A stretch of DNA of 61,731 nucleotides, counting the filler, from Dirinaria sp. TL-2023a (taxonomy: Eukaryota), in NCBI GenBank assembly GCA_051941275.1. It is 9 parts of 9 records of this genome, joined end to end, with 100 filler letters (N's around TTAATTAATTAA, not from the genome) between each part and the next. Parts side by side here need not be neighbours in the genome. Positions count along the whole stretch, not along the records: positions 54,989 to 61,731 come from JAVEBF010001425.1; 8 more parts are not named here. One strand, written 5' to 3'. Under the pieces are notes generated by a model. The model saw only the letters and a program-made list of their open reading frames with translations. It was not told the DNA's origin and did no database searches. The translations under genes and the position numbers were made by a program. Shown here in pieces: positions 54,989 to 61,731 of this stretch. Each line of letters begins with the position of its first letter. Position 1 is the first letter of the stretch.

Positions 54989-55274
54989 GTATTAAATCCG
55001 TGCCTCGAATGATACAGAATCAATTAGGCCATTTACTAGAATTAAACATGATCGATCTGGATAGGAAGACTTTAAAAGGCGTTCAAGCTTTGATGGAAAA
55101 GAGAGAACGGCGCATGTGAGTAGTAGTGACTCTGGTCGTTTTTCTTCTTCTGCATACTCGAGAGGTTGATGCAGGGAGAAATATCTTTTGGAGCCGCTAT
55201 ATAGACACGGTCTGTCCTTCGTTTAAATTTCATGATCAGACATTATTCTAACGATTAAAGCTGAGGTTCTGAAT

Positions 55275-55653
55275 ACACTCGTCGAAGTCAAAAGTTCTCA
55301 TTGATGAGATCATCGTCTCTTGCAACTCGCTACTGTCGCATTTTCACTGCATGATCGGGCGAAAACCACTAGATCTGAACTGGGATGATCAGAAGTCACA
55401 GGACATGGTAAACAAAAACTCGATGATGGTGAAGTTCATGAAGATACTTCAAGCTTACGTATCACGCTTGAGTGAGTGATGAACACACTTATCATCTCCG
55501 GAATCTAACAGATTTATAGAAGAAAGTGACTTCATTGGTCAGAAGGCCTGCAAAGTTTACAAGAACGGAGACTCAAATAGTGTAGACTTTACGATCAGCT
55601 CTTTGATGTTTGGGAGCATAAAAGAAGGTTGCGAGATGAAGGGCTTCTCTTAG
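55275..55653 (+). pseudogene. Degenerate 3' gene fragment, possibly a fungal transcription-factor C-terminus
   Basis: SCNSLLSHFHCMIGRKPLDLNWDD...RL, intron GTGAGT..CTAAC..TAG, final exon to TAG 55653; stops immediately upstream. Confidence 0.35.
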
Positions 55654-55701
55654 AAGTGGATAGGTGAACGGCTTGGAAGGACTGGGATAGAAATCATGAT
55701 G

Positions 55702-57115
55702 TTAAAGCGGATTCATATCTTCTGCATGCTGAATGAACTCTTTTACCGCCTGTGTCACTTCGTCATGAATCTCCTCAACAGATCCGTCTCCGTTGATCTG
55801 CGATACGAAGTCAGCTAATGCTTTGCCCAGGTTTACTACCTGCGTACCTCCTTGAAATAGCCCTCCGCTGCCTTCAAGTGATTCTTCACTTCTGCGTTCC
55901 AAACCTGAAAGACTTGAATTCTCTTTATAATGTCATGCTCGTCACCAGCCTCACCTCCCGGCCTTCCTAGACGCTGAAACATCCCCTCAGCCGAGCAGTT
56001 GAGAAGCAGAGTGTAATTTGTTTTTTGCACCTACCGGATGTAAGCAAGGGTTTTTATTTACGTGGGTAAGACTAACCTTCTCTTCAAACTCGAGAAGTTC
56101 TTGTATGCATTTCGAAAACCCGTGTACGAGGCCCCACTTCTTGCCTTCCTCTATTTCTTCATTGATCTTTCTCTCAAGTAAGCTGATTTTCAAATTTCTT
56201 GGAACATCGACCTTTTCCTCAAGGCAATCTTTCACGAATTCTACGTGGGGATACGTTTGATCGTCAGACTTCTCACGTAAGACATCGTCTAAGGATATGT
56301 GCTGAAACCCAAATTTCTGGCATAGAAGAGCGCATAGTGTCTTCTTGTCAATTCCGGGGGCGCCTGTATCGCAGTTAACACCAGGGATTAGTGAGACCGA
56401 AAGGATATATCAATGAAGAAGATTATAGGAATTCGCCGTTTTCGCTTTGAGAAGTGGGCCTGTCTCTCCTGCTGTAACAATTCTAACCAAGCTTTTCTCT
56501 CAGCAGAGCTGATTTTTGATGATAGTTCCTGAAATTCTTCTAGATTCTTCTCCCCGAATGTCTTTTGCTCGTATTCATACGCTTGTACCATACACTCAAA
56601 TTTGTCCATATCTCGTATAAATCGAGATTCCGCTGTCTTGCCTTCTTCATACTCTAGTCAGGCGGTCCTAATCTTTGTCCCTAGGGTTGGCTTGATTGGG
56701 TTCAACAAGCTCTGAATGTATCGGGTACCAACGTCTTCCAGCTTGAACTTATGCTCTATCATTTATTAGTCTGAGTTGGACGATCCGAAGAAGGTACATT
56801 TACCTTTAGTAACACCAGCATATGTGGGGATGTCTCCGACAACTGATTCTGCCATATCGTGGCATAGTGCTAGAAATATACACTTTCCTATATCCAAACC
56901 ATCCTGCTATACATCAACGAACGCAACTTTGACAGAAATATTGAACAAACCGGAGCGAACATAGTCAGAACTGACAACCGATACATGTGAGCAGCTACAC
57001 TCTCAGGGTTCTTGATCGTTCTCAATCACCCAGTTCGTGGCAAGTGCTTGAGGACCTCTATCAAATGTAGAAAGGGCAATGATGACTCTTCTAATTTGGA
57101 ATGAACTACTTTCAT
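55702..57115 (-). pseudogene. HD-domain 5'-deoxynucleotidase (HDDC2/YBR242W-like) fused to an adenylate/UMP-CMP-type P-loop kinase; six exons, inactivated
   Basis: MKVVHSKLEESSLPFLHLIEVLKHLPRTG*LRTIKNPESVAAHMYRLSVLTMFAP|DGLDIGKCIFLALCHDMAESVVGDIPTYAGVTK|EHKFKLE...IRTA*LEYEEGKTAESRFIRDMDKFECMVQAYEYE...IIFFI|GAPGIDKKTLC...FGFQHISLDDVLR...LVHGFSK...TLLLNCSAE...|INGDGSVEEIHDEV. TGA at 57028 and 56660; intron-3 donor at 56410 reads AT. Confidence 0.88.
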
Positions 57116-57383
57116 ATTGTCTAAGAATGTTGGAAGAAATGTTCGCTAGATATCGCGACTTAAAAGGACGACGGAGGGGATGCGTTGATTTCAGACGAGC
57201 TATTAACGGCTGTAAGTTTATCCGACCCCGCACGTAGCTTCCATCATTAATGGGATGTGGATTCTTGAGTAGTACACAGCTGCTTCTAACCACTCATAAG
57301 TCGGCCCACGTTAAAATGCACCCCCTATTTCTAATTCTAGAAGGGTCGGCTTTTGGGCGATTAGGAGTAGGTCATAAGTCTTA

Positions 57384-59277: not shown

Positions 59278-59894
59278 TGTCTCTTCTGCTACGAAAGGGA
59301 CATCATATCAAGCTTTGAAGAGTACAATCTTGTAGACTATTTGCTGCATTCACTAAGCGTACATCTCATCAAAGCTGGTTGCCAAAGTCTCTATACCCAA
59401 ACCCAGATCCCCCACTCAGCGATTTAGCGTATTTGACTACTCCTATAGGGACTTGGGAGTGCGGATGACAACGCATATGCTCTGCAGGAAGCCTGCTGTT
59501 GTTGAATCTAGAACTGATACCTCGGAACAGCTGACCATTCGCTGCCCGAACCTATGCCCCTGTCTCACTTTTCTACACATTTCCAAAAACGTCCTTTTTC
59601 AGCAGATTGATAGTCCAGTTCGAGCAGTGTTATTCTGTCTAGACGGGACTGCACAAGATCTCGCACTTCGTCTCACATTTGTTCGTTTGCGGATACTAGG
59701 ATATGTGAGTTCATTGCTCGAGAATATGGGTCCAAACTTATCAGTGACAAGCGTGGTCTCCCCCGCATCAGCTGATCGAGGGACCAACCGATCATTCAGG
59801 AATTTTGATAGATCGATTGTGCCTTTCTTGTAGGTGAGACGGCCGTGTCTGCCCACCGTCAGTCTCCGTATCACTTCTAGAAGAATCATAACTT

Positions 59895-60389
59895 TACTAT
59901 CGACCCAACTAATTGACCTCAAGCGCTGAACAATCTCGACTTTGTAACGCTGACTGCATTGACGACAGCGTGACACAGATCGAGAAGAACGAACAAGGCT
60001 TCGATCGAAGCATGGATCCGCCGATAGTTAATGATGAAAAGACCTAACATATCGCTGGCGAAGCTCAGGTGATAGCCGAAGTACGAAGATATCATGTGAA
60101 TCAGTGACAAAGTCCCCGTCCGAGTATCTAGCTCTCTGATGAAGGATACTTCAAATATGCTACAGAATATATTGACGGCTAGGTAGAGAAGGTGCAACAA
60201 TACTTGCTCTCGAGTGCATGATCCGAAGAAGCGGTGCCGCCGCAGAACGTTGGGGTAGAGAAAATGCTTCACGAGCAATACGCTGTAGGGTTGAAGAAAT
60301 CGGACGAAAAAGGACGCGGCGACTCTAATCACCAGCACTAAACCGAAGATAGCTTCGGCGATAATTGCGTATATCTGATTTACGTCCAT
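59895..60389 (-). pseudogene. Ferric reductase-like transmembrane protein N-terminal fragment (Starship-associated FRE type), hypermutated and truncated
   Basis: MDVNQIYAI...KHFLYPNVLRRHRFFGSCTR...YLAVNIFC...RTGTLSLIHM...HLSFASDMLG...YRRIHASI...LCHAV (paired heme-ligand-like His); stop and intron-like GTAAAGT follow; no FAD/NADPH domains downstream. Confidence 0.7.
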
Positions 60390-61044
60390 AACTTTCAGTA
60401 ATATGAATTAGTTGAACATCATCATTTGAGGTTAAGGCATGACTGCTGATTTGTACTTGACCGAAAGGCATTCAGTTCTGAAGACATCCACTTCTGACGC
60501 CATCGAGGCGAGATTTGCTATCCGAATCCTTTGATATGCACAGCCCGCTTTTGACGTAAAGAAGATGTATCATAGATCAAGTACTATCCGTCGACGAAGG
60601 ATTCAATTTTGGATGCGGCGTTCAATTGTGACTCCATCAAATGCTGACTCAAACTCTTGCGGCACGGGACAGCGCCATTAATCGCGACGTTAAATAGATT
60701 CGAGCAGGTTGCATGCATCTTTGCATCTACTTCATGACGATTCAACGAAGTGATCGACGCGCGGTACGTGAGAAGTTTCGTAAACGAAGTTCAAGCTGAT
60801 TTAGAAAAGGAAATGAGCTGGCGCTGATGACAGAAGCAGACATCTACACAGTCATTCGTCATGACAATAAATACTATACCTACAAGTCGATCGATCGACC
60901 CGAATGGCCTCCATCGGAGCAAGATCTTGTGAGCCGATCCCAAGTCGCAATAATATATACCGCTCATGAGTTGTCTGTCAGATAAATCTCATATCACTCC
61001 TCTTTCGCCGATGTTCTAAAGACTTTGAGACAATGAACGAAGAG

Positions 61045-61150
61045 AGAGACGAAGATGAGAACGACGAAGAAGGAGAAGAAGAAGAAGAAGAAGAAGAAGA
61101 AGGAGAAGGAGAAGGAGGAGAAGGAGAAGAAGAAGGAGAAAAAGTAGAAG
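61045..61150 (+). repeat. (GAA/GGA)n purine microsatellite within a short acidic ORF (61033-61311)
   Basis: GAAGAAGAAGAAG...GGAGAAGGAGAA tract, poly-Glu/Gly if translated. Confidence 0.8.
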
Positions 61151-61731
61151 AGAACAGAGCACAGGTAGAAGGATCTAAGAAAAGTCGTACGCAGAAGATC
61201 GACGAAAAGATCGTTGATCAAAGAAAAGTGTTTATTATTCCCAAGTCTTCTGTCTTGCGGAGATCGTCGATCGAGGGGACTTCGCGCACAAATGACAGAA
61301 ACATCATATAGCAAAAACACGTCAAATTGACAGAGTCGATCCTCCCGACTCTAACAAGTCAGGAATCAATTTTTTTTACGGGCAATGCTCTTCGTGCTAC
61401 AAGAAAGATGACTGTGAAATTTTCGAGCTGAAGTTCAGATATGGTGTCTGATCCCTAGTTTGTAGACGCAGGGACTTAGTCGAATAAGAATCATCGGTAT
61501 CGGAGATTTTGATCTGACTGGTCATTGAAAAGGGAATAGCGCATAGTTGGCAGTCAGTTTCGGCGATGTCTCTCAGCCGCACTATTTCATGCAGGCTTAG
61601 ATGACGCAGCCACACTTTATTTATGTCATGCTTATCTCACATGCAGGCATCTGCGCCTTGCAGATTTCACTTGACCGGCATCTCATATCTAGGCTTCAGG
61701 GTGTCGGACGTTTATACCTCAGTCTTGATTG

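Follow-up and report, generated by a model that had tools for sequence, protein, structure and literature searches.

RESULTS AND DISCUSSION

A CpC-directed mutation spectrum in contig C1425

The window analyzed here, a 61,731-nucleotide stretch of the Dirinaria sp. TL-2023a assembly (GCA_051941275.1; 27.7 Mb in 3,105 contigs), consists of nine contigs joined by linkers, the last of which, C1425 (JAVEBF010001425.1), is the contig under study and occupies positions 54989..61731 in its entirety. C1425 is the middle piece of a ~52-kb Starship-like block in which the first C of CC has been the target of mutation, with CpT as a minor target and the 3′ neighbor setting the context. We favor, with a probability of roughly 0.6, the view that a duplication-triggered variant of RIP (repeat-induced point mutation) with a CpC preference hit this block. 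An earlier note on this DNA had proposed a genome defense process with a noncanonical dinucleotide preference; the CpC preference was borne out by the counts that follow, while the repeat-triggered defense is a reading that we weigh below.

Both ends of C1425 overlap neighboring contigs in dovetail fashion, and each overlap pairs the window with an alternative version of the same sequence. The left overlap (54990..55337, matching C10:68-415) is 95% identical and holds 16 differences, all of them transitions, with 13 of the 14 isolated ones at CpC, and the right overlap (61538..61731, matching C1078:9039-9232) is 94% identical and holds 11 differences, again all transitions, 9 at CpC and 2 at CpT. 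Pooled, transitions account for 27/27 differences; the 25 isolated ones fall at 22/44 CpC, 3/64 CpT, 0/64 CpA, and 0/45 CpG sites (P = 4.6e-15). Both strands were mutated (16 C/T and 9 G/A among the isolated differences), as were both versions, the T/A allele lying in the window in 15 cases and in the other version in 10. No 5′ base is excluded at the CpC differences (A, 6/11; C, 2/4; G, 6/18; T, 8/11). Of the 16 differences with C10, 13 have C/G in both of the closest outgroups, 3 are split, and 0 favor T/A; as read from these sequences, the direction of change is C to T. On the assumption of independent hits in the two versions, each would have lost roughly 30 to 37% of its CC sites after the split.

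A second tabulation by 3′ neighbor, made on an HD-domain/kinase gene of C1425 (described below), compared the window branch with distant outgroups and returned 22/123 changes at CpC, 15/142 at CpA, 4/80 at CpG, and 10/163 at CpT (P = 0.0017). In six comparably close lineages, CpC changes number 1/90, 1/108, 5/121, 1/115, 5/121, and 2/120; the two most distant lineages (74%) show 25 to 27 CpC changes but also many transversions and little directional excess. C-to-T change in the copy-to-copy pairs and against these outgroups is thus in excess at CpC over CpA, CpG, and CpT, as the earlier note had predicted.

Inactivation of an HD-domain/kinase gene

The gene, on the minus strand at 55702..57115, is a pseudogene that fuses an HD domain (HD_3) with an adenylate kinase-like domain (Pfam); it comprises six exons and 391 codons and is free of frameshifts. 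All three lesions that kill it are CC-to-TC changes. Two are TGA stops at conserved tryptophans (57026..57028 and 56658..56660, caused by changes on the plus strand at 57026 and 56658), and the third is the lost splice donor of intron 3 (56409..56411), which reads AT against GT in homologues through a change at 56410; the other four introns start with GT, such that one of five starts with AT. A further CC-to-TC change, at 56348, turns a glycine codon of the P loop into aspartate (56347..56349).

These sites had been singled out from a family consensus, and homologues now confirm the ancestral states. For the DNA alignment, 12 of 17 loci were aligned, of which 8 voted after four near-duplicates were dropped; 20 homologues were used for the proteins. 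Tryptophan occupies the positions of the stops at 57028 and 56660 in 12/12 and 20/20 rows, respectively, and the ancestral TGG is found in 7/8 other lineages at the former and 8/8 at the latter. The donor at 56410 is GT in 8/8 lineages, and GG is kept in 8/8 where the P loop of the window has GAC in place of GGC. Functional homologues therefore lack the residues that had been named as aberrant. Among coding changes in this gene, 11/16 at CpC are nonsynonymous or stops, against 4/12 at CpA, where 8/12 are synonymous.

The protein is 74 to 79% identical to homologues in the named lichens (Psora and Teloschistaceae), compared with 66 to 69% for a housekeeping control, and since its identity exceeds that of the control, we consider the gene likely to be mobile cargo. 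At the DNA level, it is 85 to 87% identical across several lichen loci, and its identity to the gene in the host of two lichen-metagenome loci discussed below, L031 and L033, is 74%. The host of the window is itself probably a lichen-forming lecanoromycete: the top named matches of a dipeptidyl peptidase on another window contig are 69% identical (Lasallia and Pleopsidium), and a quick tree built from 33 of its 120 listed matches puts it in a clade that adjoins Teloschistales and Lecanorales rows.

Extent and anatomy of the CC-depleted block

The block is made up of C1078 reversed, C1425, and C10:1-36,880. Its TC/CC ratio is 2.22 in C1078, 2.17 in C1425 (calculated without an insert described below), and 2.10 in C10:1-36,880, compared with 1.21 in the eight other contigs of the window (hereafter, the gene contigs) and 1.25 in C10:36,881-55,000. 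In counts, CC and TC stand at 408:843 in C1425, whereas the gene contigs have 6375:7683 (P = 1.8e-18). TpA/ApT in the block, at 0.58 to 0.67, is below that of the gene contigs, and C1425 without the insert, with TpA/ApT of 0.67 and a substrate index, (CpA+TpG)/(ApC+GpT), of 1.25, gives no sign of the canonical CpA preference. The comparison of indices that the earlier note had called for thus finds TC/CC raised and TpA/ApT normal, and because the target is CpC and TpA/ApT stays at these values, standard RIP indices do not fire on the block. The words that the note had described as abundant by eye fared unevenly when counted on both strands. AGA is enriched (25.7 to 25.8/kb against 17.6 in the gene contigs), as is GATC (5.8 to 8.9 against 4.6), whereas TCGA is enriched only to the right of the insert (8.9/kb, against 3.8 to its left and 5.6 in the gene contigs). 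TGG words occur at 7.6 to 10.2/kb, compared with 17.2 in the gene contigs.

A change point at ~C10:36,880, where the CC share goes from 0.322 inside the block to 0.444 past it (log likelihood ratio, 97.7), sets a sharp edge inside a single contig. Past it, there is an open DUF3723 frame along with an RSN1 channel, a SIR2 gene, and other long frames, such that being accessory DNA was not in itself sufficient for a sequence to be mutated. No open frame inside the block exceeds 358 amino acids (aa), a maximum that grows to 608 when TGA is read through and to 362 when TAG is. We regard C10:36,880 as the edge of mutation in the block, which need not coincide with the end of the element.

In sequence terms, the gene set of the block is that of a Starship-like region, a term that we use as in an earlier description of such regions (10.1101/2021.12.13.472469). 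The cargo on C10, for which 45 of 80 long frames were scanned, includes DUF3723, a second ferric reductase, DUF7514, a kinase, a 2OG oxygenase, and an ankyrin-deaminase. Two Starship auxiliary genes are present on C10, DUF3723 (E = 9.7e-68) and one with FRE domains, and another, FRE-like gene lies in the window. A captain candidate, a broken DUF3435 match at C1078:1549-1893(+), is weak (E = 6.9e-4; 21.8 bits against a cutoff of 25.8), points inward, and lies less than 2 kb from the start of C1078, which opens with (TA)8 and keeps CC over its first 500 bases. The likeness to Starships thus consists in a candidate captain that would come first and point inward, DUF3723, two ferric reductases, and cargo shared with distant lichens at identities above that of a housekeeping gene. 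We keep the label Starship-like because the captain match is weak, broken, and below cutoff and because a search for the target site duplication and 3′ end found no matching end or TA run near C10:36,880. Ends like the 5′ end of C1078 also occur on C202 and C521, and further DUF3435 genes lie on C1943 and C1897, which are CC poor (TC/CC of 2.3 and 4.4), and on C1129, which is normal (1.23). Neither the captain paralogs nor the similar 5′ ends yielded a spectrum, their divergence being too great.

Two mutational signatures in one genome

C10, which bears part of the CpC block, also holds a segment (C10:57,001-59,671) with a CpA observed/expected ratio (o/e) of 0.15 to 0.26, TpA/ApT of 1.52 to 2.03, and a CC o/e of 0.97 to 1.31. 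This segment belongs to a classical CpA RIP relic (C10:56,500-59,671) that overlies a broken DUF7924 gene and has its CC intact. Because the relic keeps its CC while the two versions of the block do not differ at CpA, two specificities must have acted in this genome.

An AT-rich foldback insert of 863 bp (57384..58246) interrupts C1425, with long inverted ends whose outer 64 bases are near-identical and TA on each side. It is CpA poor (o/e, 0.61) and undepleted in CC (1.06). An empty site is present in record 20 of public run X4, and no other copy of the insert was found in the assembly. The two arms differ by 5 isolated transitions only, too few for a spectrum. The arrival of the insert may postdate the CpC episode.

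A bounded patch in a second lichen lineage and comparison with public runs

We compared six pairs of close lichen-metagenome loci for their spectra, and one of the six, L031 (JAABUO010000298.1) against L033 (JAABUY010000719.1), was CpC dominant. The remaining pairs comprise three that lean to CpA (46/263, 37/1051, and 7/713) and two with a flat or sparse spectrum. L031 and L033 are otherwise ~99% identical, and their differences concentrate in a 3.5-kb patch (L031:10,400-13,960, with bounds picked after viewing sliding windows) that shows changes at 103/236 CpC, 40/252 CpG, 14/395 CpA, and 18/404 CpT sites along with 23 transversions, against 18/1350, 20/1026, 13/1670, and 8/1562, respectively, in the flanks. 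TC/CC of the patch in L033 peaks at 2.6 to 4.0. CpG is thus raised as well, and the spectrum is not identical to that of the window block. A few codons show TGA for tryptophan and serine for proline when the patch is set against an intact paralog. A six-frame search of the L031 patch matched no Pfam family, and terminal repeats were likewise not found.

Contigs of four public runs, drawn from four studies, match the greater part of the stretch, for the most part at 90 to 99% identity or below. T/A alleles lie on the window side at 151 places relative to run X1 (26 in reverse, with 20 transversions) and at 234 places relative to run X4 (98 in reverse, with 80 transversions). Contexts were read in the 40 best-supported of 1,362 rows, a subset chosen by the support that the deep runs X2 and X6 give, and among these the 24 rows with a run-side T/A comprise 12 CpC, 5 CpA, 5 CpG, and 2 CpT. 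The element occurs in many contigs of X2 (78) and X6 (112), in which run-side C>T/G>A changes are seen at 493 and 574 places.

Candidate enzymes

Inspection of the methyltransferase genes, another step proposed in the earlier note, recovered two types. At C1379:62-2662, an 866-aa open frame encodes a C5-methyltransferase with intact catalytic motifs, which we take, from its motifs, to be of the RID type; the contig ends in an intron after this frame. A second gene, on C712, combines a C5-methyltransferase with SNF2, presumably the architecture of DNMT5. Searches for DIM-2 with PF00145, TIGR00675, BAH, DUF7893, and a motif pattern did not find it, which is a weak negative in a fragmented assembly of 3,105 contigs. 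The BAH matches read as RSC1/2-like, SNT2-like, and another chromatin protein, none of them DIM-2; the motif pattern gave three matches, all in frames without the look of a methyltransferase; and DUF7893 matched nowhere, controls included. A candidate for the 3′ exon of the RID-type gene (34% identity, E = 0.009) was taken as a chance match. Within the block, an ankyrin gene on the plus strand at C10:34,178-36,001 carries an SsdA_C (DYW-like) deaminase domain (E = 3e-10); the gene has the HAEK and CxxC motifs along with four TGA codons, and no solved structure matched its deaminase part.

A proposed RIP variant and its alternatives

We read the process as RIP-like because its context is set on the 3′ side, transversions are absent, both versions carry private hits, and its extent is that of a block. 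In the mechanism that we propose, two versions of the block (or a ~52-kb part) would be recognized as repeats, presumably during the sexual cycle, and an enzyme of the C5-cytosine-methyltransferase family would turn CC into TC on both strands, acting weakly at CpT and, from what was seen, not at CpA or CpG. Cargo genes would be broken as a result by TGA stops, changes of glycine to aspartate or glutamate and of proline to serine, and a lost donor. The likeliest enzyme would be the RID-type protein of this genome with altered target recognition, in which case the CpA-scarred relics would be older or foreign. Bearing on a duplication trigger are the two versions at each end of the contig, seen in end overlaps only, and the sharpness of the edge, past which accessory genes were spared.

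Several observations weigh against this view. The catalytic part of the RID-type protein is ordinary, at 59 to 79% identity to 13 relatives, and the 3′ exon with the target recognition region lies past the end of the contig, with no match for it recovered from the assembly. The CpA-only relic implies that either one enzyme changed specificity or a second mutator acted. No full second copy of C1425, of the HD-domain/kinase gene, or of the insert end is present in the assembly, where copy counts are lower bounds, and for want of a full second copy the two versions may represent two genotypes in one thallus instead of a sequence duplicated within one nucleus. The window branch also changed at CpA relative to the outgroups (15/142, with similar counts in two other lineages), although these changes look older and under selection, since fewer of them than of the CpC changes are nonsynonymous or stops. 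Finally, among the same 40 best-supported of 1,362 rows, the 10 with a window-side T/A comprise 2 CpC, 5 CpA, and 3 CpT.

It is possible, though we consider it doubtful, that a second, undescribed repeat-directed CC>TC mutator operates in some lichen fungi, in more than one lineage and separately from RID-based CpA RIP. Such a mutator would act beside canonical RIP on different elements and could disable a whole ~50-kb Starship, a combination that we hold no less tentatively as a whole; its activity may come from a methyltransferase that has been retargeted or from a deaminase.

Rather unlikely, in our estimation, is a chromatin-directed mitotic mutator, in which a DIM-2- or DNMT5-like enzyme would methylate CC in silenced blocks and C-to-T changes would follow without pairing, RID being left to make the CpA relics. 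Two mutually exclusive signatures on one contig fit two enzymes, a DNMT5-type gene is present on C712, and no full duplicate of the block was found. Moreover, Dim2 is reported to promote mitotic C>T at CA and to methylate CC next after CG and CA (PMC8016269). The same report, however, finds 5-methylcytosine at CG only when Dim2 is absent (PMC8016269), whereas CpG is unmutated here (0/45) and DIM-2 was not found in this fragmented assembly. The CpA relic at C10:57-59.7 kb, likely heterochromatin, also retains its CC.

A zinc-dependent cytosine deaminase, possibly borne by the element itself, is an improbable agent. The ankyrin and SsdA_C gene of the block does match the ascomycete DYW-like clade described by Iyer et al. 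in 2011, who raised the idea that fungal deaminases, of another clade, might act as mutators of selfish DNA (PMC3239186). That gene, with its four TGA codons and a TC/CC of 3.35, has itself been broken, and no homologue of the domain was found in the other lichen loci compared, L031 and L033 included, the rest of the genome not having been searched for intact copies. Enzymes of the AID/APOBEC type read the 5′ base, whereas the 3′ base decides here, and a targeting mechanism is not evident.

In an exposed lichen, ultraviolet damage at dipyrimidines, visible only under relaxed selection, would account for the contexts hit, CpC and CpT, both of which are dipyrimidines. The context table largely refutes it, and we rate it as very improbable: a 5′ T raises the rate only if C follows (TCA, 0/26; TCG, 0/14; TCT, 1/26 in the copy-to-copy pairs), tandem CC/TT pairs number 1 among 27 differences, and accessory DNA past the sharp edge inside the contig was spared. 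Least credible is an artifact of sequencing, sample damage, or assembly, since, for all that the assembly is fragmented, that C10 starts with a 137-base palindrome, and that no run holds half of the window's words, TC/CC is normal in the gene contigs, whose long frames are intact, the edge lies inside a contig, each version has its own CpC hits, and separate public contigs bear a similar bounded patch.

Relation to known systems

A CpC-preferring RIP variant would resemble RIP as known from Neurospora crassa and other Pezizomycotina in its dense C:G>T:A changes without transversions on both strands and in both versions, its confinement to a mobile-element block, its 3′-base context, and the presence of a RID-type gene. 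It differs in its target, CpC rather than CpA, and in its stops, TGA rather than TAG or TAA. RIP has been partitioned by CpN, i.e., by the 3′ neighbor (10.1101/344036), and its dinucleotide target is reported to differ between lineages, as in the CpG and CpA targets of the Aspergillus nidulans MATE element, CpA and CpT in Magnaporthe grisea, and TpCpG in Pucciniomycotina (PMC2621366, PMC3318451). None of the variants in the relevant passages of these papers is CpC dominant, and here CpA and CpG are unhit in the copy-to-copy pairs. Dim2 of Zymoseptoria tritici offers another likeness, a C5-methyltransferase causing context-specific C>T changes in repeats, but more than 98% of those are reported at CA (PMC8016269), and the DIM-2 gene was not found here. 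The open literature searched yielded no report of RIP in which CpC is dominant, although Clutterbuck 2011, cited for wide variation in RIP context, may hold one.

A survey of 1,239 genomes concludes that RIP-like defenses share a CpA preference (PMC12543289), a rule that a CpC-dominant process breaks. Since TpA-based indices miss such a process, RIP-like activity may be undercalled in lichen fungi, and inferences drawn from RIP calls, such as those on cryptic sex and transposon control, may suffer likewise. A paper on lichen Starships calls RIP by way of RIP-affected regions and never uses the term CpC (PMC13486527). A natural RID variant with another target would be a direct handle on how RID chooses its target and converts C to T, and the presence of CpA-only and CpC-only scars on one contig makes the choice between one switched enzyme and two mutators testable.

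Other features of C1425 and the window

Three further gene remnants lie on C1425. A broken gene on the plus strand (54991..55689), unassigned to any family, runs on into C10 and adjoins the HD-domain/kinase gene in several lichen loci. A plus-strand frame at 58711..59232, likewise unassigned, ends at the TGA of 59230-59232, which the earlier note had listed and which is present in the sequence, and its reading goes on shortly beyond; it has no Pfam match, and its best Atlas score, 0.85, is a lead only. The third, on the minus strand at 59919..60407, is a degenerate exon for a ferric reductase-like transmembrane segment (Atlas, 0.91 for Ferric_reduct, 32% of members), for which there was no Pfam match and a homologue search scored 0 of 380 candidates. 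It is 38% identical to the C10 paralog, which has Pfam FRE domains. The note had pointed to glutamate, aspartate, or serine at expected glycine or proline positions of this exon (IAEA, ELDTR, IEAL, LDL, FGSC, and MISSY), and each codon concerned (GAA, GAT, GAA, GAT, TCA, and TCT, respectively) is indeed one GG>GA or CC>TC step away from glycine or proline. The expected residues themselves were found in the C10 paralog at 4/5 aligned positions; it has valine at LDL, and IAEA lies outside its coverage.

A GAA-rich, acidic, low-complexity tract lies inside a broken frame at 61024-61161. The contig is preceded by a non-biological linker that joins it to its neighbor in the window (54889..54988, N44-TTAATTAATTAA-N44). 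Short direct repeats are found on other window contigs (37049-37270 and 40183-40643), in the form of a 111-nucleotide tandem pair and pairs of 104 and 67 nucleotides.

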